The notes: generated by a model from the letters alone, not told the origin. Positions 3,824 to 52,336 are shown, numbered from the stretch's first letter. The stretch is 52,390 nt of DNA from Lachnospiraceae bacterium (GCA_963604545.1 CAVCRI010000001.1:1-52390), one strand, 5' to 3'. Made by a program: numbers and translations.

Positions 3824-4798
3824 CTATTGCTTGTATATCCATTTCAGAACCTTGTTGAACAAGCGGGAACTTACCCGAAACCATCTCAGCTTGGCTTCGG
3901 GCTTGCCGCCGAAGCTGAGGAAGAATTCTCGCAGAGGGTTGTTCTTCCATGGCAAGCCTACATCCATGAAGCGGATGTGCCGGCAGCCCTGTGACTGCGC
4001 ATATTTGATGGCGTGCCATACCGTCAAGGTGTCGGGGTGCAACAGGGCATAGCACTTGCGGCGAGAGGCTAGGTGCCAAAGGTAGGCATTCTCGTTGGTA
4101 AATACGCAGGTGCAGCCGCCTATCACCTTGTTGCCCTTGGTGGTGATGAAGAGCTTGGCGTGCTCGGCCTTGCTCATCTCCTCGAAGTACTCCTTGGGAG
4201 GAACGTATCGGCGAGGTTTCAGACGATAGTAGTTCTTGTAAAGCCGCTGAAACTTCCTGATTTCCTCTTCGTCTCTAGCCTCGTGGCAGTCCACTTGCTT
4301 GGACCTCTCATGACGGACTTGTTGCATGGCCTTCTCGGAGATTCTTTCCTCGGGCTGCTTGCTGTGAAGTGAGTTGAATATTTCTTGCCATGCCACGGGA
4401 AAGTATCCCTCCTTGCGAAAATGCCGATAGCCAAACATCTTCTTGCTGATATCCGAGAACTCTATGTAGAAGCATGTGGTATGACGCAGGTAGCGGGTTA
4501 TGGCATGGAGCAGAAGAGGAAATAGGGCGTTGATGTCTTCTCCTGGGCGATAAGTCCCCTCTCCATGGGCATGGGCATGGGTATAGATAAAAGGTGGAAA
4601 GAATGTCTTGTGGTGATGAAGGGCCACAAACAATTGACCCATGATTTCGCCATGTTTGGTAGCGACGGCCATCAAGGGGGTATCGCTTGGCACTCGCTCT
4701 GTTATCAGAAAGAGTTCCAGGCTATGGAAGAAGTTGCCAGGCAGTAGCGTCGGCAAGTCCTTGCTTTCCTTGTATATGGATATGATGTATTCGTTCAC
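3824..4798 (-). CDS. GNAT/FemAB-like family protein
   Basis: C-terminal LTVWHAIKYA...FMDVG...FFLSFGG pattern typical of FemABX-like GNAT proteins. Confidence 0.7.
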   Translation of the reverse strand: MNEYIISIYKESKDLPTLLPGNFFHSLELFLITERVPSDTPLMAVATKHGEIMGQLFVALHHHKTFFPPFIYTHAHAHGEGTYRPGEDINALFPLLLHAITRYLRHTTCFYIEFSDISKKMFGYRHFRKEGYFPVAWQEIFNSLHSKQPEERISEKAMQQVRHERSKQVDCHEARDEEEIRKFQRLYKNYYRLKPRRYVPPKEYFEEMSKAEHAKLFITTKGNKVIGGCTCVFTNENAYLWHLASRRKCYALLHPDTLTVWHAIKYAQSQGCRHIRFMDVGLPWKNNPLREFFLSFGGKPEAKLRWFRVSSRLFNKVLKWIYKQ

Positions 4799-4973
4799 TT
4801 TCTTCGTTCACCTTATTATATTATATAGATGCGTCCTTTGTTGTTCGTAGGTACATCCTTCATTGTATGGAGAACCATCCGTATGGCGATTCCTCTGCAA
4901 AAATAATAAATTAATTATAAAAAAACAAGAAGAATGCCATCTCTCTCGCCCTTTTTTAGTATTTTTGCACATT

Positions 4974-5750
4974 ATGAAGATAATATTGATAGGTGCAGGC
5001 AATCTTGCCACCAATTTGGGTAAAGCTTTGCGGGACATCGGCATCGACATCCCGCAGGTGTACAGTCGCACGATGGAGTCGGCTTCGGCTTTGGCGCAAA
5101 TCGTGGGAGCCGAGGCAGTCGACGACATCGCCCGTGTGCGTGATGACGCCGACATGTATGTGCTGTCCGTAAAGGACAGTGTCCTGGCTTCATTGGTAGC
5201 CGCTCTTTGCCCAGGCAAAGAGGATAAGTTGTTTTTTCATACGGCGGGATCCATGCCGTTGGAAGTTTTCGAGGGTAAGGCGCGGTACTATGGTGTGCTT
5301 TACCCGATGCAGACTTTCTCGAAGTCGCGGGAAGTCGATTTTACTGAGATTCCTTGTTTTGTTGAGGCTAACGATGAGGAGACGCTGGCAAAGGTCGAGG
5401 GCTTGGCACGCAGGCTTAGCCAAAAGGTTTATCGCCTGGCTTCCGCCGACCGTAAGTATCTGCATCTCTCCGCAGTCTTTGCTTGCAACTTTGCAAACCA
5501 TTGCTTTGCCATCAGCCAGGATCTGTTGGAGAGTCATGGCATTCCTTTTGATGTGATGTTGCCGCTTATCGACGAGACGGTTAGCAAGGTGCATCATCTC
5601 AAGCCCTTGGGCGCGCAGACTGGTCCTGCTGTAAGGTATGACGAGAATGTCATTGGAGCCCAAAGCAAGCTCTTGGAGTCTACCCCCTTGTGGAAGGAGA
5701 TCTACGACAGCATGAGCCGCGACATTCATCGCATGGCAGAGGAAAAATGA
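4974..5750 (+). CDS. Rossmann-like and DUF2520 domain protein
   Basis: MKIILIGAGNLA dinucleotide-binding motif, HTAGS, YPMQTFS and QTGPAVR. Start moved to ATG 4974, just after a TATTTTTG box. Confidence 0.88.
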   Translation: MKIILIGAGNLATNLGKALRDIGIDIPQVYSRTMESASALAQIVGAEAVDDIARVRDDADMYVLSVKDSVLASLVAALCPGKEDKLFFHTAGSMPLEVFEGKARYYGVLYPMQTFSKSREVDFTEIPCFVEANDEETLAKVEGLARRLSQKVYRLASADRKYLHLSAVFACNFANHCFAISQDLLESHGIPFDVMLPLIDETVSKVHHLKPLGAQTGPAVRYDENVIGAQSKLLESTPLWKEIYDSMSRDIHRMAEEK

Positions 5751-7755: not shown

Positions 7756-9030
7756 ATGAACACAGGTAAAGTAGATGTCCTGCTCGGTTTGCAGTGGGGC
7801 GATGAAGGTAAAGGTAAGGTGGTTGATGTGTTGACCCCTAAGTATGATGTCGTTGCTCGTTTCCAGGGTGGTCCTAACGCTGGTCATACCCTTGAGTTCG
7901 AGGGACAGAAGTACGTGCTTCGCTCTATCCCTTCTGGTATCTTCCAGGGTGGTAAGGTGAACATCATCGGTAATGGTGTGGTTTTGGCTCCAGACCTCTT
8001 CATGCAGGAGGCGAAGGACTTGGAGAAAAGTGGCCATGATCTCAAGAGCCGTCTCCATATCTCTAAGAAAGCACATCTTATCATGCCTACTCACCGTGTG
8101 CTCGACGCAGCCATCGAGGCTTCAAAGGGTAAGAACAAGGTGGGTACCACTGGTAAGGGTATCGGTCCTACATACACTGACAAGGTAAGCCGCACGGGTC
8201 TTCGCGTGGGCGACATCCTTGAAAACTTCCAAGAGAAGTACGAGGCTCATAAGGCTGCTCACCTCAAGCAGATTGCTGCTCTCGGCTACACAGACTTCGA
8301 TATCACTGAGGTAGAGAAGACTTGGATGGAGGGCATCGAATACTTGAAGCAGTTCCAGATTGTTGACAGCGAGGTGGAAATCAACAAGATTCTCCGCTCT
8401 GGCAAGAGCATCCTCTGTGAGGGTGCGCAAGGTACCATGCTCGATGTTGACTTCGGTTCTTATCCATTCGTAACTTCATCCAACACCGTTTGCGCTGGTG
8501 CTTGCACAGGTCTAGGCATTGGCCCTAACAAGATTGGTAACGTATATGGTATCATGAAGGCTTATTGCACACGTGTGGGTGCAGGTCCTTTCCCAACAGA
8601 GCTCTTCGATGAGACTGGTGCGAAGATTCGTGACCTTGGTCATGAGTATGGTGCGGTTACAGGCCGTGAGCGTCGTTGCGGTTGGTGCGACCTCGTTCAA
8701 CTCAAGTACTCTATCATGGTGAACGGCGTAACCGAGCTTATCATGATGAAGAGCGACGTGCTCGATGGCTTTGAGACCATCAAGGCTTGCGTGGGCTATA
8801 AGTTGAAGGACGGCTCTGTTACAACAGACTTCCCTTACGAGATTGACGATGTGGAGCCTGTTTACAAGGAGTTCAAAGGTTGGAATGTAGACATGACCAA
8901 GTTTACCTCTGAGGATCAGTTCCCACAGGAGTTCAAGGACTACATCGCATTTGTGGAGGACTTCCTGGAGACCAAGATTGGTGTCATCTCAATCGGTCCA
9001 GACCGTGAGCAGACTATCGTGAGAAAATAA
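7756..9030 (+). CDS. purA: Adenylosuccinate synthetase
   Basis: QWGDEGKGK, GGPNAGHT, GTTGKGIGP and EGAQG motifs. Confidence 0.98.
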   Translation: MNTGKVDVLLGLQWGDEGKGKVVDVLTPKYDVVARFQGGPNAGHTLEFEGQKYVLRSIPSGIFQGGKVNIIGNGVVLAPDLFMQEAKDLEKSGHDLKSRLHISKKAHLIMPTHRVLDAAIEASKGKNKVGTTGKGIGPTYTDKVSRTGLRVGDILENFQEKYEAHKAAHLKQIAALGYTDFDITEVEKTWMEGIEYLKQFQIVDSEVEINKILRSGKSILCEGAQGTMLDVDFGSYPFVTSSNTVCAGACTGLGIGPNKIGNVYGIMKAYCTRVGAGPFPTELFDETGAKIRDLGHEYGAVTGRERRCGWCDLVQLKYSIMVNGVTELIMMKSDVLDGFETIKACVGYKLKDGSVTTDFPYEIDDVEPVYKEFKGWNVDMTKFTSEDQFPQEFKDYIAFVEDFLETKIGVISIGPDREQTIVRK

Positions 9031-9037
9031 TATTTTA

Positions 9038-9128
9038 TAGTGTTTAATGTTTAGTGTTTTATGTTTACTTAGGAGAGGTAAATGTTGCGCTAGGCATTAA
9101 ACATTAATCATTAAACAATAAACATTAA
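9038..9128. repeat. Inverted pair of heptamer arrays (TAATGTT-like / AACATTA-like)
   Basis: The run tagtgtttaatgtttagtgttttatgttt is followed by the complementary run cattaaacattaatcattaaacaataaacattaa, between purA and hisS. Confidence 0.7.
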
Positions 9129-9130
9129 TA

Positions 9131-10495
9131 ATGGCTCAGAAACCAAGTATTCCAAAGGGTACACGTGACTTCGGTCCTGTGGAGATGGCCAAGCGCAACT
9201 ACATCTTCAATACCATCAAGGATGTGTATGCCCTCTATGGATTCCAGCAGATTGAGACCCCAGCTATGGAAACCCTTCACACCTTGATGGGTAAGTATGG
9301 CGAGGAGGGCGACAAGCTGCTCTTCAAGATATTGAATTCAGGAGATTACATGAACAAGATAACCGATGAGGACATCCACTCGCTGGGTTCTCTCAAGCTA
9401 GCTGCCAAGCTCTGCGAGAAGGGATTGCGCTACGACTTGACCGTGCCTTTCGCTCGTTACGTGGTGCAGCACCGAGAAGAACTCCAGTTGCCTTTCAAGC
9501 GTTATCAGATTCAGCCAGTATGGCGTGCTGACCGTCCACAGAAAGGTCGCTATCGTGAGTTCTATCAGTGTGATGCCGACGTGGTTGGCTCAGACTCTCT
9601 CCTCAACGAGGTGGAGTTGATGCAGATTGTTGACACAGTATTCACCAAGTTTGGTGTGCGTGTTTGCATCAAGATCAACAATCGCAAGATACTTACCGGT
9701 ATTGCTGAGGTCATTGGTGAGGCAGACAAGATTGTTGATATCACTGTGGCTATCGATAAGCTCGACAAGATTGGACTCGACAATGTGAATGAGGAACTTC
9801 GCAGCGATGGCATCTCTGAGGAGGCTATCGAGAAGTTGCAGCCAATCATCTCACTCTCAGGCTCTAACGATGAGAAACTGGGAGTAATTGCCAAGGTGCT
9901 CGAAAGTTCTGAGATTGGCTTGAAGGGCGTGGAGGAAACCAAGTTTATCCTCGATACCTTGAAGTCGGTAGGCTTGAACAATGAGATTGAGCTCGACCTT
10001 ACCTTGGCTCGTGGCTTGAACTATTACACTGGAGCCATCTTCGAGGTAAAAGCACTCGATACTCCTATGGGTAGCATCACGGGCGGTGGTCGTTATGATA
10101 ACCTTACCGGCATCTTCGGCTTGCCAGGCTTGAGCGGTGTGGGTATCTCTTTTGGTGCCGACCGTATATATGATGTGCTCAATGCCCTTGACCTCTATCC
10201 TAAGGAGGCTGTGAACTCTACCCAGGTATTGTTCATTAACTTTGGTGAGAAAGAGACCGCTTACTGCTTACCAATCGTGGGTAAGGCACGCCAGGCTGGC
10301 ATTCGCACTGAAATCTTCCCAGATAAGGCGAAGATGAAGAAGCAGATGAGTTACGCCAATGCCAAGAACATTCCATTTGTAGTTCTAGCAGGTGAGAATG
10401 AGATGGCGCAAGGCAAGGTTACATTAAAGAATATGGAGAGTGGTGAACAGACCTTGGTAACTGCCGAGGAACTGATTGCCGCTATCAAGAAATAA
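9131..10495 (+). CDS. hisS: Histidine--tRNA ligase
   Basis: [35 protein letters not shown] and GGGRYD motifs. Confidence 0.98.
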
Positions 10496-10500
10496 TTTTT

Positions 10501-10538
10501 CACCCCCATTTCATCATCTAATGGGGGTGTTTTTTTAG
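10501..10538 (+). terminator. Intrinsic terminator after hisS
   Basis: CACCCCCATT...AATGGGGGTG hairpin followed by a T-tract. Confidence 0.85.
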
Positions 10539-10642
10539 GGCGCTTGGTCTGCGTGATGCAGCCTAAGCGCTTCTATTTTATAGAAAGAATTGGCTAATCG
10601 CTGGATATATAACTATTTAATAAACTTTTATCTTAAAAACAA

Positions 10643-11635
10643 ATGAAGAAATACGTATTATTTTTCTTTTGCTTGGTCATCGCTTTGATGATGACCTCTA
10701 GTTCGAAGACTACGACCATCTTTGTGATCGGTGACTCCACAGCTGCCGAGAAGAGTCACCCGGAGCGTCAGCCTGAGCGAGGGTGGGGCATGATGTTGCA
10801 AGGGTGTTTTGATGATAAGATTATCGTGGACAATCATGCCGTTAACGGCCGTAGCTCAAAGAGTTTTATTGATGAAGGCAGATGGCAGAAAGTGCTCGAC
10901 AAGATGAAGCCTGGTGACTATGTGTTCATTCAGTTTGGACACAATGACGAGAAACCTATGCCAGACCGCCATACCGACCCGGGCTCAACCTTCGATGCCA
11001 ATCTGGCTAGGTTTGTGAATGAAACTCGTGCCAAGGATTGTTTCCCTGTGATTTTCAATTCGGTAGTACGCCGTTGCTATTATTCTGCAGACTTGGAAAA
11101 CGACGATGACGAGAAATTGAGGACCAAGACTTATGATGGTGAGGAGAAAATCAATAGTGATACCCTCATCGACACTCATGGTGCTTATGCGGTGGCTCCC
11201 CGTAATGTGGCTAGGAAACTTAACGTTCCGTTTATTGATGCAACCAAGGTAACCCACGACATAGAGAGTAGCCTGGGTGTCATTGGCAGTCGTAAGTTGC
11301 ACATGTGGTTCTTGCCTGGTGAGAATCCACAGGTGCCTAAGGGTAAGCAAGACAATACACACTATAATGTCTATGGCGCTCGTGTCGTTGCCAATGCTTT
11401 GGCTGATGCCGTCGGTGAGCAGGTGCCAGCATTGAAGAAGCATGTGCGCCATTTCGATTATGTGGTGTCTAAGCAAGGAAGGGGCAACTTTATGGATTTG
11501 CAGGCTGCCGTGGATGCAGTCCCTAGTGGCAAGATGACCGATATACTTGTCTTGGGTGATTCCTGGAAGAGACCTGTAGTAGCCAAGGATAAGAAAATAA
11601 AATTCGTGAGATACTTTGGCGCAACCATCAGGTGA
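10643..11635 (+). CDS. SGNH/GDSL esterase (rhamnogalacturonan/pectin acetylesterase-like), secreted
   Basis: Signal peptide; IGDST, GWG, NGRSS, QFGHND and DNTH motifs. The short C-terminal tail resembles the start of a pectinesterase domain. Confidence 0.88.
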   Translation: MKKYVLFFFCLVIALMMTSSSKTTTIFVIGDSTAAEKSHPERQPERGWGMMLQGCFDDKIIVDNHAVNGRSSKSFIDEGRWQKVLDKMKPGDYVFIQFGHNDEKPMPDRHTDPGSTFDANLARFVNETRAKDCFPVIFNSVVRRCYYSADLENDDDEKLRTKTYDGEEKINSDTLIDTHGAYAVAPRNVARKLNVPFIDATKVTHDIESSLGVIGSRKLHMWFLPGENPQVPKGKQDNTHYNVYGARVVANALADAVGEQVPALKKHVRHFDYVVSKQGRGNFMDLQAAVDAVPSGKMTDILVLGDSWKRPVVAKDKKIKFVRYFGATIR

Positions 11636-11652
11636 TGAATCCCCCACACAAT

Positions 11653-11737
11653 GGTGATAGTCAATAAAAGAGCAGTTAGCCAATAAAAAGGTGATAATCA
11701 ATAAAAAAGGTGCTAGTCTATAAAAAGGTGCTAATCA
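11653..11737. repeat. Imperfect 18-19 bp tandem repeat, about 4.5 copies
   Basis: GGTG(A/C)TA(G/A)TC(A/T)ATAAAAA-type units start at 11653, ~11671 (degenerate), 11690, 11709 and 11727. Confidence 0.8.
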
Positions 11738-11747
11738 CTCAAAACGA

Positions 11748-11780
11748 AGAGGGTGCGACATGTACGATGTCACACCCTCT
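11748..11780. terminator. Hairpin between convergent genes
   Basis: AGAGGGTGCGACAT...ATGTCACACCCTCT inverted repeat; similar in style to 47004-47050. Confidence 0.7.
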
Positions 11781-11841
11781 AATAAGAACTAATACTATTA
11801 AAATTATATTTACTTCTTACTCCCGAAGAAGATGAAGCCTT

Positions 11842-12402
11842 TTACTTGAAGAATCTCTTGTAAAGACCTGCGAAGCCAGCAGCATGGCGAGCCTCATCCT
11901 TTGCCATCTCGTGAACAGTATCGTGGATAGCGTCAGAACCCTGCTCCTTAGCCAACTTGGCGATACGGAACTTGTCCTCACAAGCACCCTTCTCGGCTGC
12001 GATACGTGCCTCGAGGTTACTCTTGGTGTCACCCAAAACCTCACCCAGCAACTCTGCGAAACGAGAAGCATGGTCAGCCTCCTCATAAGCGTAGCGCTTG
12101 TAAGCCTCGGCAATCTCTGGATAGCCCTCACGGTCTGCTTGGCGTGCCATGGCGAGATACATACCAACCTCACCGCACTCACCGTTGAAGTGATCCTTCA
12201 AACCCTTGATGACATCCTCATTGACGCCATCTTTGTAAGCCTGGCCGAGAACGTGTACGGTAGCGAATGTCAAGTCATCGTCTACGGCATTCTCCATCTC
12301 CTTGAATTTGCTGGCTGGAGCCTTGCAGATAGGGCACTTCTCTGGAGCTTCTGTTCCCTCATAGATATAACCACAAACGGTGCAAATAAATTTTTTCTTC
12401 AT
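11842..12402 (-). CDS. Reverse rubrerythrin / NADH peroxidase (N-terminal rubredoxin plus ferritin-like diiron domain)
   Basis: CTVCGY...CPIC rubredoxin domain, then EExxH and DExRH diiron motifs. Start taken at MKKKFIC. Confidence 0.92.
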
Positions 12403-26810: not shown

Positions 26811-27401
26811 ATGAAACAGAAATTCAATGTAATCACATCAAGCTGCATCCCTCTTCCTTTGGAGAATGTAGATACCGACCAGATAATTCCAGCCCGCTTC
26901 CTCAAGGCCATCGACAAGGAAGGCATGGGCGACAACCTCTTCCGTGACTGGCGCTACAACGCCGATGGCACGCCAAAGCCAGACTTCGTGATGAACGACC
27001 CTTCTTACAGTGGCGTCATCCTCGTGGCTGGCAAGAACTTCGGTTCCGGCTCTTCTCGTGAGCACGCTGCCTGGGCTATCGCCGGTGCTGGCTTCCGTGT
27101 GGTCATCAGCTCTTTCTTTGCTGATATCCACAAGAACAACGAGCTCAACAACCTCGTATTGCCAGTGGTAGTGAGCGAGCCTTTCCTGAAGGAACTCTTC
27201 GAGAGCATCGACAAGGACCACAAGACAGAGGTGAAGGTGGACCTGCCTAACCAGACCGTTACCAACCTGGCGACCGGCAAGAGCGAGCACTTCGAAATCA
27301 ATGGCTACAAGAAGCATTGCTTGGAGAATGGTCTTGACGACGTAGATTTCCTCGTTCAGAACCGCGACAAGGTTGAGGCTTGGGAAGCAAAGAATAAGTA
27401 A
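26811..27401 (+). CDS. leuD: 3-isopropylmalate dehydratase small subunit
   Basis: NVDTDQIIP and NFGSGSSREHA motifs. Confidence 0.98.
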   Translation: MKQKFNVITSSCIPLPLENVDTDQIIPARFLKAIDKEGMGDNLFRDWRYNADGTPKPDFVMNDPSYSGVILVAGKNFGSGSSREHAAWAIAGAGFRVVISSFFADIHKNNELNNLVLPVVVSEPFLKELFESIDKDHKTEVKVDLPNQTVTNLATGKSEHFEINGYKKHCLENGLDDVDFLVQNRDKVEAWEAKNK

Positions 27402-27423
27402 GGAAAAGAGCAGCTGGCGTTTA

Positions 27424-27593
27424 GCCACTATATCGATAGGCGCCAATGCCTATATCGGAATGGGGTAACGCTTATATCGGCATGTGTACATGCTTATATC
27501 GGCATAGGCCAATGCCTATATCGACATGTGTAATCGCTTATATCGGCATTCGCAATCGCCTATAGGAGAATCGGGCGATGCCGATATAGGCAT
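27424..27593. repeat. 22-bp-period repeat array with terminal inverted copy
   Basis: TATATCG cores at 27429, 27451, 27473, 27495, 27517 and 27539, a partial at 27561, and an inverted ATGCCGATATAGGCAT at 27578-27593. Confidence 0.9.
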
Positions 27594-27661
27594 ACACTTC
27601 TTTCGATATCGGCGCAGGTACCATTGCACACAGCTGCTCGGAATGTAAGATAATAAAGGAA

Positions 27662-29263
27662 ATGAAAGTTAACGGAAAGAGAGAAAACACTCGTATCAGG
27701 GAGATCGAAATCATGGACTCCACGCTGCGTGACGGCGAGCAGACCAATGGCGTTTCGTTCTTGCCCCACGAGAAATTGATGATAGCAAGGATGCTGTTGC
27801 ACGACATCAATGTGGATCGCATTGAGGTGGCTTCGGCACGAGTTTCGGAAGGTGAAAAGGATGCTGTCGCTCGAATTTGCCGTTATGCTAAGACGATAGG
27901 TAAGCTAGATGCCGTCGAGGTATTGGGATTTGTGGATAACAACAAGAGCGTTGACTGGATTGCCGAATGCGGCGGCCATGTCATCAATCTCCTAGCCAAG
28001 GGTAGCTACAAGCACTGCACACAGCAGCTCAAGATGTCGCCTGAGGAGCATTTGGCTCACATCAAGCAGACCATTGATTATGGCTTGGGCAAGGGGTTCA
28101 CCATCAATCTGTATCTGGAGGATTGGTCGAGTGGCATGCGCGACTCCCGTGATTATCTCTTCATGATGATGGACGAGTTGGTGAAGCTGCCAATCAAGCG
28201 ATTCCTCTTGCCTGATACACTCGGCATCCTGAACCCATTGGAGTGTGTGGAGTATATACGCCTGATGGTGCGCCGTTATCCTGAGAGCCATTTCGACTTC
28301 CATGCCCACAACGACTACGACCTTGCCGTGAGCAACTCGTTGGCTGCCGTGCTGAGTGGTGCCAAGGGACTCCACGTTACGGTCAATGGACTGGGCGAGC
28401 GTTGTGGCAATGCGCCACTCGCCAGTGTGCAGGTTATCCTGAAGGACATGTTCCATGCCAAGACCAACATCAAGGAAGACCGCCTGAACGACATCTCCCG
28501 CCTCGTGGAGGGATACAGCGGCATCGCCGTGGCCCCTAACACGCCTGTGGTGGGAGAGAACGTGTTCACCCAGGTGGCTGGCGTACATGCCGATGGCGAC
28601 AACAAGGACAAGCTATATTGCAACGACTTGATGCCTGAGCGCTTCGGCCGCCATCGTGAGTATGCACTCGGCAAGAACTCCGGCAAGGCGAACATCATCC
28701 AGAATCTCAACGAGCTGGGATTGGAGCTGACCCCTGAGCAGACCAAGGCGGTGACCAAGCGTATCACCGAACTGGGCGACCGTAAGGAGCTCGTCACCCA
28801 AGACGACCTGCCTTACATCGTGAGCGATGTGCTGAAGCATAACACGCCAGAGGATAAGGTGAAGCTGGTGAGCTACATGGTCTCTACATCCTACGGTCTG
28901 AAACCTATCGCCAGTGTGAAGGTGGAGATAAACGGCAAGGAATATGAGGACCAAAGCACGGGCGATGGCCAGTATGATGCCTTCGTGCGTGCCCTTCGCA
29001 ATATCTACAAGGTGAAGCTGGGCAAGACATTCCCGCTGCTTGACAATTATCAGGTGAGCATCCCACCAGGTGGCCGTACCGATGCCCTCGTGCAGACCGT
29101 CATCACATGGCGTGAGGGCAACCGCATCTGGCGCACACGTGGTCTCGATGCCGACCAGACCGAGGCTGCCATCAAGGCAACGCTCAAGATGATCAACATG
29201 TATGAGGCTGATGAGAGCGACGAGCAACCTACTTCGCCTCGCAACCTCGACATGGAAAGTTAG
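27662..29263 (+). CDS. cimA: (R)-citramalate synthase (second LeuA-family enzyme)
   Basis: DSTLRDGEQ, YLEDWS, HAHND, GERCGN and GDGQYDAF motifs; lies between leuD and leuB as is usual in Bacteroidales. Confidence 0.85.
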   Translation: MKVNGKRENTRIREIEIMDSTLRDGEQTNGVSFLPHEKLMIARMLLHDINVDRIEVASARVSEGEKDAVARICRYAKTIGKLDAVEVLGFVDNNKSVDWIAECGGHVINLLAKGSYKHCTQQLKMSPEEHLAHIKQTIDYGLGKGFTINLYLEDWSSGMRDSRDYLFMMMDELVKLPIKRFLLPDTLGILNPLECVEYIRLMVRRYPESHFDFHAHNDYDLAVSNSLAAVLSGAKGLHVTVNGLGERCGNAPLASVQVILKDMFHAKTNIKEDRLNDISRLVEGYSGIAVAPNTPVVGENVFTQVAGVHADGDNKDKLYCNDLMPERFGRHREYALGKNSGKANIIQNLNELGLELTPEQTKAVTKRITELGDRKELVTQDDLPYIVSDVLKHNTPEDKVKLVSYMVSTSYGLKPIASVKVEINGKEYEDQSTGDGQYDAFVRALRNIYKVKLGKTFPLLDNYQVSIPPGGRTDALVQTVITWREGNRIWRTRGLDADQTEAAIKATLKMINMYEADESDEQPTSPRNLDMES

Positions 29264-34568: not shown

Positions 34569-34626
34569 TATGTGCTATTGGGGCATTGTATGTGCTATTG
34601 TGGCATTGTATGTGCTATTGTGGCAT
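34569..34626. repeat. 20-bp tandem repeat x~3
   Basis: TATGTGCTATTG(G/T)GGCATTG at 34569, 34589 and 34609 (partial). Confidence 0.92.
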
Positions 34627-46285: not shown

Positions 46286-46888
46286 ATGGAATATTTATTG
46301 ATATTTATCTCGGCGATATTCGTCAACAACATCGTGTTGTCTCAGTTCCTCGGTATCTGTCCGTTCCTGGGCGTATCGAAGAAGATTGATACCGCCATCG
46401 GCATGGGTGGTGCCATCGCCTTCGTCTTGACCTTGGCCACCATCATCACCTGGCTCGTGCAGAAGTACGTGCTCGATCCGTTTGGCTTGCAGTATCTTCA
46501 GACGCTGTCGTTCATTCTCGTGATAGCGGCATTGGTCCAGATGGTGGAGATTATCCTCAAGAAGGTTTCGCCAGCGCTTTACCAGGCACTGGGCATCTTC
46601 CTGCCATTGATTACCACCAACTGTGCCGTGCTGGGTGTAGCCATCCTGGTTATCCAGAAGGACTTCAACCTGTTGGAGAGCGTGGTCTATGCCTTCTCCA
46701 CCGCCCTTGGCTTTGCCTTGGCACTCATCGTGTTTGCAGGCATCCGAGAGCAGCAGGCGTTGGTTCGCATTCCTAAGGGCATGCAGGGCATGGCCATCGT
46801 GCTCGTCACCGCATCGCTCCTGAGCCTCGCCTTCATGGGATTCTCTGGTGTAGACAGCGGTCTCAAGGCCTTGTTCGGGTTGGAATAG
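46286..46888 (+). CDS. rnfA: Rnf electron transport complex subunit A
   Basis: NNIVLSQFLGICPFLGVS and LPLITTNCAVLG motifs. Confidence 0.96.
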   Translation: MEYLLIFISAIFVNNIVLSQFLGICPFLGVSKKIDTAIGMGGAIAFVLTLATIITWLVQKYVLDPFGLQYLQTLSFILVIAALVQMVEIILKKVSPALYQALGIFLPLITTNCAVLGVAILVIQKDFNLLESVVYAFSTALGFALALIVFAGIREQQALVRIPKGMQGMAIVLVTASLLSLAFMGFSGVDSGLKALFGLE

Positions 46889-46890
46889 GA

Positions 46891-46932
46891 CAGCTTTGTG
46901 AATCAGGCAGCTTTGTGAATCAGGCAGCTTTG
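46891..46932. repeat. 17-bp tandem repeat x2.5
   Basis: CAGCTTTGTGAATCAGG at 46891 and 46908, partial at 46925. Confidence 0.9.
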
Positions 46933-46953
46933 AAACTATAGGAATAAGATGCT

Positions 46954-47050
46954 ACCTGTATGGTTGAAACGGGCTGAAAGGGCAATTCCAACCGTACAGG
47001 TTGAGAGGATGTGTCATAAGCCTTTTGAGACTTATGGCGCATCCTCTTTT
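46954..47050. terminator. Two hairpins between convergent rnfA and the rep-like gene
   Basis: ACCTGTATGGTTG...CAACCGTACAGGT (46954-47001) and AGAGGATGTGTCATAAG...CTTATGGCGCATCCTCTTTT (47004-47050). Confidence 0.75.
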
Positions 47051-47078
47051 GTTTGATGGACTGTTGGTGTCGGTTACT

Positions 47079-48173
47079 CTAGCATCCGTGGTCCTTGAAG
47101 AACCCATCGAGCCCCTTGACGATGTAGCCAGCCACGTTTAGTGGCTTCTTGAACTTCTTGCATCGGGCGATGAAGTAGTCCTTTCGCAAGAACCAGATGT
47201 GCAAGTCGCCCAAATCACAGAGGCGTAGGCGATGGCAAAGCAGGTGCGCCGTCTTCTCTTCCACCTGGTAGATTACCTTGAGCTTCACGCTTAGCTGTAG
47301 CTGATAGCCTTTCAGCTGCTCCAGTCGCTCACCCTTCGGGGCGATGTCCTGGCGGTCATTCACCGTGAATATCACGTGGATGTGATTGTCGTCGTCCGGC
47401 TTGGTGTAGGGCTTGTAGTCGATGTACTGGTCGATGATCCCCTTGTCATAGAGGCTCTTCAACTCCTGCTTCGCCACGAGCAGCACATGGTTGTTTAGCT
47501 CGCTGAAGTGCTTGTAGACTAGGGGATTGCCCTTCATGAGCTCCGTCACCTTCTGCATGGTGAGGTCTCTGTAGCCTCTGCACAGCAGGAACTTCATGAT
47601 GAGGTACATCTTTCTTGTGAAGATGCTTCTCATCTTGCCCAGTTCCGCGAGGTCAACCTTGGCATAGCCCTTGTCGAGTGACATGAGCGTGACCCACACG
47701 TCGAGGTCGAACTTCAGGCAGACATACTGCAGCTTTTGCTTGCTGTAGGCATAGACGGTGAATAGCCGCGGAAACTGCGTGAAGCTCGTAACCTCGCCGT
47801 TGACGATGGGGATTCTGACCTCCATCTTCGACATCTCTTCCATTTGGCATTTCAGTCGCGAGTAGTGCTGCGGCTTGACGCCAAAGGCCTTGAGCGGCAC
47901 CCATAGCAGCACGCCCTTGCGAGCCACTTGTTCGGGTGTGAGGGGGTACTTCCCATGATACACCTTGGCATTGATGACCGTAGGCTTGATCCATACTTCC
48001 ATGTACTTGGCAAGCATCATGAGTACCTTGAAATGAGCACAATTGTAGTTAGACTGCATGAGTGCCCAAGTGCCCAGCAGCACGAACATGTCGTGCTGGG
48101 GCGTGCCTTCTGCTTCAGAGAGAAGAACAAGAGATGGTTTTTGTTCCAATGCTTCTTTCCTTGTTTGATTCAA
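47079..48173 (-). CDS. Rep_3/RepB-like replication initiator protein (divergent)
   Basis: MRSIFTRKMYLIM and YKHFSELNNHVLLVAKQEL resemble the second winged-helix signature of Rep_3 initiators (L.S.Y..RLY..L / Y..F..F...VL..A..EL). TTG start. Confidence 0.65.
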   Translation of the reverse strand: MNQTRKEALEQKPSLVLLSEAEGTPQHDMFVLLGTWALMQSNYNCAHFKVLMMLAKYMEVWIKPTVINAKVYHGKYPLTPEQVARKGVLLWVPLKAFGVKPQHYSRLKCQMEEMSKMEVRIPIVNGEVTSFTQFPRLFTVYAYSKQKLQYVCLKFDLDVWVTLMSLDKGYAKVDLAELGKMRSIFTRKMYLIMKFLLCRGYRDLTMQKVTELMKGNPLVYKHFSELNNHVLLVAKQELKSLYDKGIIDQYIDYKPYTKPDDDNHIHVIFTVNDRQDIAPKGERLEQLKGYQLQLSVKLKVIYQVEEKTAHLLCHRLRLCDLGDLHIWFLRKDYFIARCKKFKKPLNVAGYIVKGLDGFFKDHGC

Positions 48174-48250
48174 TTTGTTTAAATTAGTTGTTTATATATT
48201 GTCCAGAAACCGACAAGCAAGGGGATGTGGAGAATAAGGAATGGCAAACT

Positions 48251-48441
48251 TAGAATAAAATATTCTCTGATAGGAATGTCTGCCATCCTTTAACACGATT
48301 CCATACTCCTGCTATGCCAGTCCCTGTGAAATATTCCTTATCTAATATCTATATCACAAGTCTAGCACAACCATAAATTCTTAGAATCGTGTTAATCCAT
48401 GACATGCTTCCTATGCACAGAAATGGAATATTCTTATTCTA
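48251..48441 (-). ncRNA. Long rod-like structured RNA in the leader of the rep-like gene
   Basis: Six nested helices, with G-U pairs that work only on the minus-strand transcript; downstream of the promoter at 48504-48535. Confidence 0.65.
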
Positions 48442-48503
48442 TTAATTAGAGTTGCACAAGCACTCAGCTAGTGATTAGCTGTGTTTCTTGTATTATGTTG
48501 CTG

Positions 48504-48535
48504 CAAAGTTACGAATTTATTATGAAACCACCAAA
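48504..48535 (-). promoter_or_regulatory. Promoter for the structured leader and rep-like gene
   Basis: Minus strand: TTTG (48532-35), 20-nt spacer, TAACTTTG (48504-11). Confidence 0.75.
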
Positions 48536-48881
48536 TGTTTTTGGTATTTTATTGCGAAAAACATGAAAAAAGTTATGTTTTAATGTCGAAGAGCATGTTT
48601 TGGTGGCAAAATGTACCCGTATATATGGGTCCAGGGCTTATTTTTCGGAGATATTTGCATACCATGCGCCAAAGTTACTACACCTTATTATATATAGGAA
48701 CTAATGCCATGTGTGTTTCCTTGGCTATTCAAAACCAATGTTGAGAGAAAAAAAGATGACACTCTCACGTATACGTATATTACTATAGTTATAAATTGTA
48801 TATAATAGTATATTAGGTTAAGCCAATTTTCTTCGTAAGTGACTGATGGATAGCGAGATGCGAAAAATGTCGTTTCTGAGG

Positions 48882-48974
48882 TGGTAACTTATGGGGGCTG
48901 GATTTGATGGATATGGTAACTATTATGGGTAGAAGTGGTAACTTTGGAGGGGTGATTATCTAAATTGGTAACTT
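48882..48974 (+). repeat. Four TGGTAACT boxes (iteron-like)
   Basis: At 48882, 48914, 48936 and 48966 (spacing 32, 22, 30), next to an AT-rich tract at ~48770-48815. Confidence 0.7.
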
Positions 48975-48993
48975 GGGCGTTCGGTGACAGGTG

Positions 48994-49122
48994 CTTACGC
49001 TTATATCAGCATCATCTTACGCCTATATCAGCATCATCTTATGCCTATATCAGCGTTCGCTTACGCCTATATCAGTGTTGCCTCGTGCCTATATCGGCAT
49101 TGCCTTACGCTGGTATAGGCGT
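48994..49122. repeat. Five 22-bp direct repeats plus inverted copy
   Basis: CTTACGCCTATATCAGCATCAT-like units at 48994, 49016, 49038, 49060 and 49082, with an inverted partial copy at 49104-49122. Confidence 0.92.
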
Positions 49123-49175
49123 TGCGTTCTTCCTATATAAGCAGGCTAGTTCTTCCGCTATCGGCGTTGTCTGAT

Positions 49176-49271
49176 GTGGATGGAAGTGGATGAAGATGGC
49201 TCAGGATGGTCAGAAGTGGTGGGAAGTGGGGAGGAGTGGAAGAATGGTGGGGGAGAAATGTCGTATCTTTG
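49176..49271 (+). promoter_or_regulatory. Seven (G/A)TGG boxes at exact 10-bp period upstream of a TATCTTTG -7 box
   Basis: Boxes at 49176, 49186, 49196, 49206, 49216, 49226 and 49236; -7 box at 49264-71. Confidence 0.7.
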
Positions 49272-49337
49272 CAAATGTGATTCGGAAGTGACGGTCACAC
49301 AACTAGAGTTTATTAATCATTTAAAAGTTTATGTATT

Positions 49338-50003
49338 ATGGCAGTAAGTTACAGTGTATCTAAGATGAATTCAAACTTCGGCGACAAGACCGACGGCAAG
49401 TTCTACGCCCATGCGCAGATCAACGGCACCACCTCGCTCAAGCAGTTCTCCCAGCTCATCGCCTCTCAGACCACCGTGTCGCGTGCTGATGTGGCAGCCG
49501 TGCTCATCAGTTCGGTAGAGAACCTCGTGATGGAGCTTCAGCGTGGCAACCAGGTGGAGTTTGGAGAGCTGGGCAAGTTTCGCCTGCAGATTACCAGCAA
49601 GGGTGCCGAGACGGCGGCTGACTTCAAGTCGGACACCAACATCACGGGTGTGAACGTGCAGTTTGTGCCAGGTGAGGACCTCAACGATCTCTTCTCCAAA
49701 CTGGAGTTTACACCTGTCGCCTCTCGTCTCATCCAGAAGGCTGCCCTCAAGGCTGAGAAGGAGCAGGCAAAGACCCTCGACCTCGATGCCATCAAGGCGA
49801 GCGGCAAGAAGAACAACGGCAATGATGACTCTGACAAGGGTGGGTCTACCACTGGCGGCTCTACTTCGGGAGGCTCAGGCTCATCTACCGGTGACTCTGG
49901 CTCATCTACCGGTGACTCTGGCTCATCAACCGGTGACTCTGGATCATCTGCCGGTGGCTCAGGCAGTTCCAGCAGTGATGGCGACGATGTAGGCATCGGA
50001 TAG
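49338..50003 (+). CDS. Bacteroidales HU-related DNA-binding protein (HU-HIG type) with Gly/Ser-rich tail
   Basis: KFYAHAQ, TTVSRADVAAVL, GNQVEFGELGKFRLQI and VNVQFVPG motifs; GSSTGDS repeats. Confidence 0.88.
   Translation: MAVSYSVSKMNSNFGDKTDGKFYAHAQINGTTSLKQFSQLIASQTTVSRADVAAVLISSVENLVMELQRGNQVEFGELGKFRLQITSKGAETAADFKSDTNITGVNVQFVPGEDLNDLFSKLEFTPVASRLIQKAALKAEKEQAKTLDLDAIKASGKKNNGNDDSDKGGSTTGGSTSGGSGSSTGDSGSSTGDSGSSTGDSGSSAGGSGSSSSDGDDVGIG
49878..49961 (+). repeat. In-frame 21-bp repeat x4 encoding GSSTGDS
   Basis: GGCTCATCTACCGGTGACTCT units at 49878, 49899, 49920 and 49941 (degenerate). Confidence 0.9.
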
Positions 50004-50071
50004 CCCCCGGCGAGAGGGCTGTCCGGGCCCTCTCGGAAACGAATAGTATTCACCTTTAAATAACGACAATT

Positions 50072-50173
50072 ATGGCAGCAAAGAACAAGCAAACTTGGAA
50101 TGAGATTATCAAATTTTTAGTGACGGTATTGACCGCAGTCCTCGGTTCGTTGGGCGTGGCTTCTTGCCAGTAG
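50072..50173 (+). CDS. Smalltalk-family small membrane peptide (33 aa)
   Basis: MAAKNKQTWNEIIKFLVTVLTAVLGSLGVASCQ*; lies between the HU-like and amidase genes; not in the ORF track. Confidence 0.85.
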   Translation: MAAKNKQTWNEIIKFLVTVLTAVLGSLGVASCQ

Positions 50174-50186
50174 GGGAGGGTGGCGT

Positions 50187-50612
50187 ATGAGAGAGATCAA
50201 TATGATTGTGGTGCATTGCAGCGCGACTCGCTGCAATCGCCGATACACCCTGGAGCAGTTGCGACACGACCATGTGATGGTGAACCACTGGCGTGACATC
50301 GGCTATCACTACTACATCACCCTCGATGGCATCGTGCATCCCTGCCGACCGGTGGAGCGCATGGGTGCCCATGCCCGTGGCTACAATGGCCACTCCATCG
50401 GAATCTGCTATGAGGGCGGGCTCAACGAGAACGGATGCATCACCGATACTCGCACGCCTGAGCAGAAGGAGGCGATGCGGCGACTCATCATCGACCTGCA
50501 TCGTCGCTTCCCTTCCATCCGAACGGTGCTGGGGCATCGGGACTTGCCGGGTGTACAGAAAAGTTGCCCTAGCTTCAATGCCTGGCAACTGCAATCCTTG
50601 CTGAAGGATTGA
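50187..50612 (+). CDS. N-acetylmuramoyl-L-alanine amidase (Amidase_2, T7 lysozyme-like)
   Basis: IVVHCSAT, WRDIGYHY, AHARGYNGHSIGICYEGG, GHRD and KSCPSF motifs; no signal peptide. Confidence 0.93.
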   Translation: MREINMIVVHCSATRCNRRYTLEQLRHDHVMVNHWRDIGYHYYITLDGIVHPCRPVERMGAHARGYNGHSIGICYEGGLNENGCITDTRTPEQKEAMRRLIIDLHRRFPSIRTVLGHRDLPGVQKSCPSFNAWQLQSLLKD

Positions 50613-50660
50613 GACGAGGGGTGGCGGTGGTTACCTACTCGTAAAATAATGAGGAAAAAG

Positions 50661-50701
50661 AAAAAAGTGCGGCCATGGGTCGCACTTTTTTCGTATCTTT
50701 G
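50661..50701 (+). terminator. Hairpin/terminator after the amidase, abutting the -7 box of the next gene
   Basis: AAAAAAGTGCG...CGCACTTTTTT followed by TATCTTTG (50694-701). Confidence 0.7.
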
Positions 50702-50735
50702 CACTATCAAACAATCCTCTAAATAGAATCGAATA

Positions 50736-50996
50736 ATGATGTGTAAACCAAGTGATTATGAAGCTACGGCGAGCAGCTATCCTGCTCGCATGTATAGCAA
50801 GATAGAGCTGTCTCTGCTCTACTTTCCGCAGACCGACGACAAGGCGGTAGCCCGCCATCATCTGATGGCTTGGATCAAGGGATGTCCCGAACTTTGGACG
50901 AAATTGCAGGAGCTGGGGTATCGCAACCGTTGTCAATTCTTTTCGCCACGCATGGTGCGGCTCATCATGGATTACCTAGGTGAGCCCAGCCGATGA
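50736..50996 (+). CDS. DUF4248 family protein
   Basis: YSKIELSLLYFP...L.AWI...L...L..LGY...FSPRMVRLIMDYLGEP; usual neighbour of HU/smalltalk/amidase. Confidence 0.85.
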   Translation: MMCKPSDYEATASSYPARMYSKIELSLLYFPQTDDKAVARHHLMAWIKGCPELWTKLQELGYRNRCQFFSPRMVRLIMDYLGEPSR

Positions 50997-52212
50997 GTTG
51001 GTCGCATCGGTCGCCCGTGCCTCGGTAGTAGATGAGGGCATCGTAGCGGTTGGAGGTCTGGAAGAAATCGCCCTCCGTGCCAACGTGCTGGGTGGTGCCG
51101 TCGGGCTTGACGACCAGGTACTGGTAGCTGTAGTAGCCCTGCTTGAGCAAGACGGTGGCTTGGTAGCTGCCGCTGGCTTCGTCATACTCCAGGCGGTAGG
51201 GCGGCAGGAAGCTGTCTAGCGTCCAGTCGCCGTTGAGGTAGACCTCGCCCGGTTGTCGAGGGGCTTGCAGCCGGAAGTGCACCTGGGCATAGTCGCAGGT
51301 GTAGTGGCTCTTCTGGTTGTCGCTGTTGCGGATATAGAAGGAGCCCTTGGCTCCCTCGTCGTGCACGTAGCTTGGCCTTGGCTGGTCGGGCATCACGTAG
51401 GCGTGGAAGTCGTCGCCGTCCCATCGTATCTCGTCGATGCCCATCGTGGGGTGGTCGAGGTCGAGCATCTCAAACTTGCGATATTCGTTGCCCGCCGAGA
51501 TGATGAGCTGTCGGTTGTGGCGCCACTCCATGCCGTCGGCACTCAGGTAGTCGGGCTTGGCATTCCAGACGGCGTTGTCCCACCTGCCGTTTTGCAGCAC
51601 TACGGTTTTTACCTGCTGCTGGGGGTTGGTGATGTGCAACTGGTCGTACTTTAGGTTGAGGCTCACCTGCTGGTGGCTCTTGTTGATGTCGATGTCGGTG
51701 TTCGTGGTGTATGCCATCGCCACCTTCACCTTGGGTTCCACCACCATGAAGCAGGCGGTGAACATGCGGTTGTCTCCCTCGCCGGCATTGTCGTCGTAGA
51801 CAGTGAGGCGATAGTTGCCGCTCATCGTGAGCTGGCAGTGCTCGTTGGGGATGCTGAGGCTGTAGTGGGTGTAGAGGTGGTTGGTGTTGAGCGACTGCTC
51901 GGTGTCGTCGATGGTCAGCTCGCCGTTGAATCCTCTCATGTAGTCAGACTCGAAGAGTCCCTCCGACGGTTGCCAGTTGGCATCGCAGTGCTCCAGCCTA
52001 TAGCTGTAGCGGTGGTAGTCGTGGGTCATGTCGTCGAAGTCGATGTGAATGGCGTTTCCTCCGAGTTGGGTGATGGGCATGCCAAGCCAGTCAGTTCCCG
52101 CCACCACCTGGAGGGTCATGATGCGGGAGTTGACGATCTCGTGCCGCTGAGCCATCGATGGGACGGCATTGAGCGCGAGGGCAAGTGCGAAAGTGTATAG
52201 CAATCTCTTCAT
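50965..52212 (-). CDS. DUF5103 / type IX secretion system plug-like protein
   Basis: Signal peptide; HCDANW, YTHY, SGNY, QNGRWD, AGNEYR, LKQGYYSYQY and EGDFFQTSNRY motifs. Start taken at MKRLLY. Confidence 0.8.
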   Translation of the reverse strand: MKRLLYTFALALALNAVPSMAQRHEIVNSRIMTLQVVAGTDWLGMPITQLGGNAIHIDFDDMTHDYHRYSYRLEHCDANWQPSEGLFESDYMRGFNGELTIDDTEQSLNTNHLYTHYSLSIPNEHCQLTMSGNYRLTVYDDNAGEGDNRMFTACFMVVEPKVKVAMAYTTNTDIDINKSHQQVSLNLKYDQLHITNPQQQVKTVVLQNGRWDNAVWNAKPDYLSADGMEWRHNRQLIISAGNEYRKFEMLDLDHPTMGIDEIRWDGDDFHAYVMPDQPRPSYVHDEGAKGSFYIRNSDNQKSHYTCDYAQVHFRLQAPRQPGEVYLNGDWTLDSFLPPYRLEYDEASGSYQATVLLKQGYYSYQYLVVKPDGTTQHVGTEGDFFQTSNRYDALIYYRGTGDRCDQLIGWAHLGNP

Positions 52213-52336
52213 GCGTGCAAAGGTACATGAAATAGGGGAGATGACCAAGGAAAAGGGCAAAAAAATAACTTGCAGTAGTCTTGAGATGACTAAATGCAAG
52301 CTTATCAACAATAACTAATACATGAAAAACACTTTG

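Follow-up and report, generated by a model that had tools for sequence, protein, structure and literature searches.

The stretch of DNA considered here (hereafter, the window) comprises 52,390 nucleotides of a Prevotella-like genome (GCA_963604545.1, CAVCRI010000001.1:1-52390, listed as Lachnospiraceae bacterium) and contains, at positions 47079-50996, a block of ~4 kb in which a gene for a Rep3-type replication initiator, rep, is encoded divergently from four small plus-strand genes. These genes encode an HU-HIG DNA-binding protein, the small peptide known as smalltalk, an Amidase_2 family enzyme and a DUF4248 protein, and a spacer of 1164 bp separates rep from the HU-HIG gene; the block is flanked by rnfA and a plug gene of the type IX secretion system (T9SS) (Table 1). 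An earlier reading of the sequence by itself (below, the sequence-only reading) described the same gene order, spacer and coordinates, with which the open reading frame (ORF) calls and Pfam agree. As that reading also held, the block carries no integrase, transposase, relaxase or capsid gene: none of its ORFs matched such families in scans with Pfam and further family libraries, and an integrase or recombinase, relaxase or transposase of its own is found neither among the five ORFs nor in the flanks. All five genes are intact, and the block is a Rep-type variant of a multi-copy, uncharacterised Bacteroidales cassette.

The product of rep matches the Pfam family Rep3_N over residues 95-194 (E 2.2e-7, 31.8 bits against a cut-off of 22.4) and the PHROG family phrog_4402, a ‘replication initiation protein’, at 7e-5. 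Pfam detects no Rep3_C domain in the window protein; across the family, Rep3_N is matched by 24 of the 31 aligned members and Rep3_C by 7 of the 31. The AlphaFold model of Rep, which was built on the family alignment, has a predicted local distance difference test (pLDDT) score of 90.7, and a Foldseek search with this model retrieves the mini-F initiator RepE54 at E 2e-7, with a template modelling (TM) score, on the target, of 0.69-0.71 over ~260 columns. Complexes of Rep with the DNA unwinding element (Rep-DUE) were matched as well, along with R6K pi (8.5e-4) and RctB (4e-3). The two winged-helix domains, WH1 and WH2, occupy residues ~30-275, the second one being recognized via the whole-chain alignment to RepE54, and are followed by an extra helical C-terminal domain of ~80 amino acids (residues 281-361). 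Judging from the model, the ORF that the sequence-only reading described as Rep_3-like is a true RepE/pi-type initiator with the double winged-helix fold, an identification to which both the above-threshold Rep3_N match and the structural comparison contribute. The long version of the ORF is probably correct given that the N-terminus is conserved from residue 9 onwards in P0002, a relative with 71% identity. A HMMER search with Rep among 1.84 billion representatives yielded 84 clusters only at E <= 1e-3; a sequence-profile search of the PDB with the Rep family produced only a chance match (E 0.02), and searches of genome, viral and metagenome contig collections gave no relatives of the window Rep.

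The association of this initiator with the cassette genes extends to other genomes. The Rep family profile has matches at E <= 1e-10 in 73 of 300 other species of the genus and in 5 of 400 in the wider order. From about 70 strong, full-length matches, 40 were taken together with flanks of up to 6 kb, those at contig ends being the main ones skipped, and one more locus, L007, was added; the gene content of these loci was then established using local hidden Markov models (HMMs). In a quick IQ-TREE phylogeny of Rep, the 19 loci that group with the window (clade A) and the other 22 (clade B) are set apart, the 19-row clade that holds the window having an SH-aLRT support of 99 and the window forming a long branch. 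Rep is directly followed by DUF4248 in 16 of the 19 clade A loci, and in the other 3, DUF4248 lies at a distance of 1.3-5.2 kb. Of the clade A loci, 12 contain the HU-smalltalk-amidase trio, in 3 it is cut by the contig end, and 4 lack it; the HU-HIG protein, the DUF6486 peptide and Amidase_2 follow each other in the same order as in the window in 11 of these 12 loci, with L097 being rearranged. None of the cassette genes is found in any of the 22 clade B loci. Many loci are orthologous at ~95% nucleotide identity, so that we count about 8 independent modules (the window, the L007/L074 group, the L075 group, L087, L099, L107, L091 and L097). The window's own genome contains a second Rep-like gene, on C8, which is 25% identical to the first and is located between an amidase and an HU-HIG gene. 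The linkage between Rep and the cassette is not a chance occurrence: one Rep clade is consistently accompanied by DUF4248 and usually by HU-smalltalk-amidase. Accidental juxtaposition of genes that are unlinked in related genomes, which the sequence-only reading had named as a finding that would refute it, is contradicted both by the survey and by the copy on C8.

In clade A, the otherwise syntenic loci L074 and L007 diverge in one segment (7914-11286 and 9660-12250, respectively), where genes for CBM26/alpha-amylase proteins in L074 replace the HU-smalltalk-amidase-PDDEXK_2 genes of L007, with Rep, DUF4248, the hairpin and the 22-bp arrays described below being retained. Clade B (L008, L009, L082-L109; 22 species) consists of chromosomal Rep3 proteins that are highly conserved within species groups, and its member L008 matches both Rep3_N and Rep3_C. 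Several of the host genomes consist of two large replicons, and the clade B Rep might be the initiator of a secondary replicon.

Copies of the cassette within the same genome reveal a second type of replication protein at the position of Rep. This genome has 7 matches to DUF4248, ~20 to HU-HIG and 10 to Amidase_2, and an HMM scan identifies ~10 genes for VapE-like primase-helicases that combine the BT4734-like_N and VapE-like_dom domains. On C24, C39 and C273, the VapE gene is followed by DUF4248, and on C24, HU-smalltalk-amidase comes next; on C1 and C8, a Rep3-type protein takes the place of the VapE-like gene. The sequence-only reading was right to recognize HU-like/smalltalk/Amidase_2/DUF4248 as a recurrent cassette, for which the VapE-like primase-helicases are the partners in other copies. 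That the same slot can be filled by replication proteins of two unrelated kinds argues most strongly for the cassette being a replication module. In another copy, on C162 (L023), a PDDEXK_3 gene is inserted between smalltalk and the amidase; this copy is followed by a run of minus-strand ORFs, one of which was scanned and is a glycosyltransferase.

Parts of this arrangement have been described previously. The passages of Sberro et al. that deal with the trio (bioRxiv 10.1101/494179) report an HU protein, a small transmembrane peptide (‘smalltalk’, family 350024) and an amidase, with VirE nearby, and propose that the trio forms cell-cell channels and translocates DNA; in these passages, there is no mention of Rep, of an origin-like spacer or of DUF4248. 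The window resembles this neighborhood in that the trio has the same gene order, a replication-type gene and DUF4248 are its neighbors, and the set is present in multiple copies within the genome, and differs from it in having a Rep3-type initiator where a VirE/VapE-like primase-helicase usually stands. Burroughs et al. (PMC5499826) describe, in the part concerned with this family, a lineage-specific expansion of HU-HIG, largely without operon links, and propose a role in conflicts; the Rep3 variant is not mentioned there. Our literature search yielded nothing on this Rep-HU module.

The spacer between rep and the HU-HIG gene has a layout of its own. The GC content is 33-38% over 48250-48999, compared to 52-56% in the rep gene. 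The consensus of Bacteroidetes-type -33/-7 promoters is TTTG-N17-21-TAnnTTTG, and full matches to it occur 10 times in the window, against 0.6 expected; one of these is the predicted rep promoter, and a full match on the rep strand, between -297 and -374 nt from the Rep start, is found in 8 of 9 modules. Downstream of the promoter, the minus strand of 48260-48409 is predicted to fold with a minimum free energy of -50.1 kcal/mol (z -6.68, with 0 of 200 shuffled sequences as stable), compared to -24.8 for the other strand; the much greater stability on the rep strand and the G-U pairs suggest an RNA rather than a DNA structure. The structured element upstream of rep that the sequence-only reading pointed out is real and conserved in position, a long stable hairpin being present downstream of the promoter, ~-110 to -245 from the Rep start, in 9 of the 9 modules examined; the same reading overstated the case in calling the entire intergenic region packed with structure, given that the other 17 of the 18 spacer tiles that were folded have z-scores between -2.4 and +1.8. 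The hairpin core AUUCUAUGCC...GGCAUGGA is common to four lineages, with a variable apical stem, and across 10 sequences from these 4 lineages, one U-G pair is invariant in all 10 and double changes are seen in 4 of the 22 pairs. The strict motif TTCTATG..CATGGAA is no more common in the window's genome than in the control, and a comparable hairpin is lacking in 8 of 9 regions upstream of VapE genes. A scan of 46800-51100 with Rfam 15 gave nothing near a gathering score and no match at all in the spacer; the best match, MicX (27.2 bits, against a gathering score of 75), lies over the gap between the amidase and DUF4248 genes.

The AT-richest 100 bp lie 300-500 bp from the Rep start in 8 of the 8 spacers that were profiled, a location that corresponds to the candidate unwinding region in Table 1. 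The adjacent TGGTAACT(T) boxes could be either -7-like promoter boxes or initiator-binding repeats; the exact sequence GTAACTTTG occurs in 3 copies in the window, all within this spacer, and since it fits the -7 box, the short repeats may simply be promoters. Other modules have short dispersed repeats as well, for example, ATTCGCCCTGG, which is found four times in L007. The layout is conserved among the modules: starting from rep, the leader hairpin and the promoter-like site are succeeded by the AT-rich block, the short repeats and the 22-bp array, and finally by the HU gene. The recurrence of the promoter-like site and the leader hairpin across modules is a new finding of this work. The L075 locus additionally has an element of ~270 bp at 4702-4974 and 10442-10714, with one copy located within the Rep-HU spacer; this element, possibly a small foldback repeat, recurs in L095 and L070, with matches in both orientations.

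The block is best seen as an insertion of ~4 kb because rnfA directly adjoins the plug gene in two close species. These are G232 and G210, the two closest species sampled (RnfA 96% and plug 67-69% identical by tblastn), in which the two genes are ~100 bp apart, with one hairpin between them. The empty site contains the segment TTCCAGCCTACCAGTCTG from the 3' end of the plug gene, and in the window, two diverged copies of this segment flank the insert, from which we infer a resemblance to an att-like target duplication. The C-terminus of the plug protein has changed from ..GWNSCQ* in the relatives to ..GWAHLGNP* in the window, and the last codons of DUF4248 overlap the new 3' end of the plug gene. 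Directly after the rnfA stop codon, at 46883-46933, there are three 17-bp direct repeats GAATCAGGCAGCTTTGT that G232 and G210 lack at their empty site. Modules of very close relatives (~95% nucleotide identity) occupy the same sites, and between species, the position of the module differs.

Table 1. Features of the block and its flanks, in window coordinates
Feature	Position	Strand	Description and basis
rnfA	46286-46888		Left flank of the block
Left junction	46986-47003		Diverged copy of the original 3' end of the plug gene, TTCCAACCGTACAGGTTG; minus strand reads ..LYGWNC..; alignment to the empty site of G232/G210
Terminator-like hairpin	47004-47047		Between rnfA and the rep stop; 20-nt arms and T-run; inverted repeat I3, 85% complementary
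Rep3-type (RepE/pi-like) initiator	47079-48173	minus	364 aa; Pfam, PHROG, model, Foldseek
Long imperfect hairpin	48285-48398	minus	In the predicted leader of the rep mRNA; 112-225 nt upstream of the start
Predicted rep promoter	48504-48535	minus	TTTG-N20-TAACTTTG; match to the Bacteroidetes-type -33/-7 consensus
AT-rich block	48536-48860		28-40% GC; candidate unwinding region, putative function
Four TGGTAACT(T) boxes	48882-48976	plus	22-32 bp apart
22-bp tandem array	48994-49147	plus	6-7 units of CTTACGCCTATATCAGCATCAT, last units inverted
Predicted HU operon promoter	49263-49271	plus	-7-like box GTATCTTTG, 67 nt before the HU start; putative
HU-HIG DNA-binding protein	49338-50003	plus	Gly/Ser-rich tail; Pfam HU-HIG 1.6e-31; TIGR01201 HU_rel 9e-21
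Smalltalk peptide	50072-50173	plus	33 aa; PF20096 DUF6486, 6.2e-12
Amidase_2, N-acetylmuramoyl-L-alanine amidase	50187-50612	plus	141 aa, phage endolysin type; Pfam 1.8e-18; phrog_822 amidase (lysis) 2.6e-48
Terminator-like hairpin and T-run, then -7-like box	50660-50701	plus	Box GTATCTTTG precedes DUF4248; inverted repeat I14, 93% complementary
DUF4248 small protein	50736-50996	plus	Pfam 3.6e-26
Right junction	50985-51001		The other diverged copy of the plug segment, within the 3' end of the plug gene
T9SS plug gene	50965-52311	minus	Right flank of the block

Comparison of close pairs yields dN/dS values of 0.22-0.40 for Rep, 0.07-0.13 for DUF4248, 0.20-0.25 for HU and 0.18-0.46 for the amidase. 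These values point to purifying selection on all four genes in close relatives and, hence, to working genes rather than debris. Rep diverges fastest: between the window and L087, the identity is 34% for Rep, 49% for DUF4248, 57% for HU and 79% for the amidase.

Considering these observations together, the block is likely, with a rough probability of 0.45, to be a chromosome-resident, integrase-less replicon module with an intact Rep_3 initiator rather than a decayed plasmid. Under this reading, Rep would be produced from a leader of ~325 nt, in which the hairpin would control the Rep level; the initiator would bind to repeats within the spacer, open the AT-rich block and start local replication; and the HU-like protein would bend the spacer DNA, as host IHF and HU do at iteron origins. 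The cell wall would be the target of smalltalk and of the phage-type amidase, which is signal-less, with lysis or release as the outcome; together, these steps would amount to the local amplification plus lysis suggested in the sequence-only reading. We argue that the cassette is a replication module at heart because its initiators are interchangeable and because the layout of promoter, hairpin, AT-rich region and repeats is conserved.

Several observations weigh against this reading. The spacer array belongs to a class that is represented by 115 merged arrays of 21-23 bp genome-wide, 94 of them in intergenic regions, which account for ~12% of the DNA, and its own unit family also occurs at 27420-27600 and on C12, C96 and C122, none of these sites being near a cassette. 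Within the modules, the arrays lie 40-250 bp from HU and 700-900 bp from the Rep start, and in L091 the array remains with HU, 3.5 kb away from Rep. An array is found within 400 bp upstream of 5 of 18 HU-HIG genes, mostly those without Rep, compared to 59 of 2589 crude gene calls, and in 18 of the 22 clade B Rep loci, a 22-bp array is missing within 1.5 kb. The arrays, then, track HU genes rather than Rep genes and are not specific to the module, so that the sequence-only view of them as origin-like repeats is not supported in that form, considering their number in the genome, the location of the same unit family between ordinary genes and their proximity to HU. The window spacer contains a single DnaA-box-like site, with 1 mismatch to the general box consensus. 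The window hairpin was not detected, at E values up to 10, by the covariance model R1, which was built from four lineages and found only orthologs of its own lineages, leaving the hairpins of the window, L006, L091 and L097 unmatched; the claim made for the window hairpin is accordingly one of shared position and shape, not of homology. With regard to the insertion, the two flanking target copies agree at only ~10 of 18 positions, a repeat search revealed no convincing terminal inverted or direct repeats, and the occupation of the same sites in very close relatives implies that mobility is slow at best.

Tandem repeats of this length appear to be a general feature of these genomes. Whole-genome output of Tandem Repeats Finder (TRF) contains 76 rows with a period of 21 and 125 with a period of 22, compared to 23 and 31 for periods of 20 and 23, respectively, and 22 is the most common period of at least 15 bp in 408 kb of DNA from other species of the genus. 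The unit sequences vary from site to site, and many of them hold palindromes of 12-16 bp; per kb of gap, the arrays are somewhat more common in convergent than in divergent gaps. The window includes further arrays at 247-324 and 34569-34626, and the second array with units of the spacer family (27420-27600) consists of ~8 units of GCYTATATCGGCAT with a 22-bp period, the last ones inverted, and sits between ordinary plus-strand genes at 26811-27401 and 27662-29263. Among the independent modules, 7 of 8 have a 22-bp array in the spacer. This array may be a target of Rep, HU-HIG, DUF4248 or another factor; we put the chances of Rep being the binder at about one in three.

Distant relatives of the window Rep are encoded on plasmid-like contigs from three species of the genus, L110 (2873 bp), L111 (4140 bp), L112 (6399 bp) and L113 (4595 bp), as well as on contigs of ~37 kb in G472. 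L110-L112 contain 2.2-2.9 direct repeats of 21-22 bp, with 95-100% matches, 250-310 bp upstream of rep, and L113 has no comparable direct repeat upstream of this gene. As a separate matter, the arrays were examined as possible decoys for plasmid iterons, and this candidate was rejected: the iterons of the small plasmid-like contigs have no array-like match in the window's genome, where the matches equal those in the control. In these genomes, 22-bp arrays are not readable as iterons without a genome-wide control.

The known system closest in its initiator is that of the Rep_3 iteron plasmids (mini-F RepE, R6K pi and pPS10 RepA; PF01051, PF21205). The window shares with these plasmids the double winged-helix fold and the AT-rich region with direct repeats near the initiator gene, and the distant relatives of its Rep are found on small plasmid-like contigs, 3 of 4 with 21-22-bp repeats upstream. 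Unlike the plasmid initiators, the window Rep is chromosomal, is only ~12% identical to RepE, has the additional C-terminal domain and no Rep3_C sequence match, is preceded by a predicted leader with a long hairpin, and has the fixed partners DUF4248 and HU-smalltalk-amidase; furthermore, its candidate repeats lie at a distance of 700-900 bp and are members of the genome-wide class. Another point of comparison is provided by the SaPI/PICI islands, which have pri-rep-ori modules with their own initiator and an iteron origin. Like these islands, the block is small and chromosomal and combines an initiator gene with an AT-rich region flanked by repeats, but it lacks an integrase, a repressor and packaging genes and has a lysis-type pair instead.

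Other interpretations of the block have to be weighed against an active replicon. In one of these, the block is a domesticated DNA-binding module, in which the Rep-like protein no longer initiates replication and represses or organizes the divergent HU-smalltalk-amidase operon, with the host retaining the cassette for housekeeping of the cell wall or nucleoid. Winged-helix Rep dimers are known to act as repressors at their own operators, and such a role would agree with the stable chromosomal position among close relatives, the purifying selection, the placement of arrays and boxes around promoters and the multi-copy state of the cassette, with its ~20 HU-HIG paralogs. However, DNA binding alone hardly explains why Rep3 and the unrelated VapE-like primase-helicase share one cassette slot, the block is absent at this site in the closest species, and the full double winged-helix fold is kept along with the extra C-terminal domain; we consider domestication of this kind unlikely. 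Insertion in the absence of an own integrase, at positions that differ between species, could also be the mark of a satellite-like or phage-related hitch-hiker that comprises an initiator, an origin, its own HU and a phage-type lysis pair, is mobilized or packaged by a helper and is integrated by a host or helper recombinase. The amidase is of the phage endolysin type, with 42-50% identity to amidases of Bacteroides phages and to enzymes from microvirus-sized records of 5-6 kb; still, no relative of either of two queries, the window Rep and the L075 Rep, was found in IMG/VR, the block includes no packaging, capsid or regulatory switch genes, and there are no clean att repeats, all of which makes this scenario quite improbable.

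Defense against other replicons, also suggested in the sequence-only reading, would involve the chromosomal Rep and the arrays titrating or handcuffing incoming iteron plasmids or phages, HU-HIG intercepting foreign DNA in line with the conflict role proposed by Burroughs et al., and smalltalk and the amidase providing abortive lysis. The fast divergence of Rep compared to its neighbors (34% identity between the window and L087, against 79% for the amidase), its dN/dS, which ranks highest among the conserved genes, and the lineage-specific expansion of HU-HIG, as portrayed in the relevant part of PMC5499826, would be expected under this scheme, but none of the 5 window proteins matches PADLOC-DB 2.0 at E <= 0.01, array-like matches to the iterons of the small plasmid-like contigs are lacking in the genome, and the block has no sensor or effector of a known defense type; such a function is, to much the same degree, improbable. 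Finally, a decayed integrated plasmid with no present function would account for the lack of integrase and mobilization genes and for the broken copies of Rep, interrupted by internal stops, that some relatives carry (G736, G689 and G755). This last suggestion of the sequence-only reading is disfavored by the five intact genes of the window, the confident Rep model and the purifying selection in close relatives (dN/dS 0.07-0.46), and by the conservation of the spacer architecture across modules whose Reps are ~30% identical, and we regard it as very improbable.

The HU-smalltalk-amidase cassette is among the most repeated uncharacterised gene sets in gut and oral Bacteroidales, and a replicon module of the kind outlined above could supply Prevotella genetics, for which few tools exist, with a native replicon and a copy-control RNA. 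At its most far-reaching, and as a long shot, the replicon reading would imply that Bacteroidales chromosomes keep selection-maintained, integrase-less mini-replicons, each with an interchangeable initiator (Rep3 or primase-helicase), HU as the origin architect, a leader hairpin for copy control and a capsid-less lysis pair. Such elements would over-replicate a patch of the chromosome and release the DNA via lysis of a subpopulation, with the genome-wide 21-22-bp arrays being landing sites for the DNA-binding proteins of the cassette.

Some features of the small proteins complete the description of the block. The DUF4248 protein is modeled as four helices (pLDDT 82.6), for which Foldseek found no fold match in the PDB at E <= 0.001, and the literature search returned nothing on the function of DUF4248 in this context. 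Smalltalk, inspected by eye, appears to contain a single hydrophobic stretch. In the HU-HIG gene, ~4-5 tandem units of 21 bp (49857-49982) encode the Gly/Ser-rich tail, and because of this tandem structure, the length of the tail could vary by slippage.

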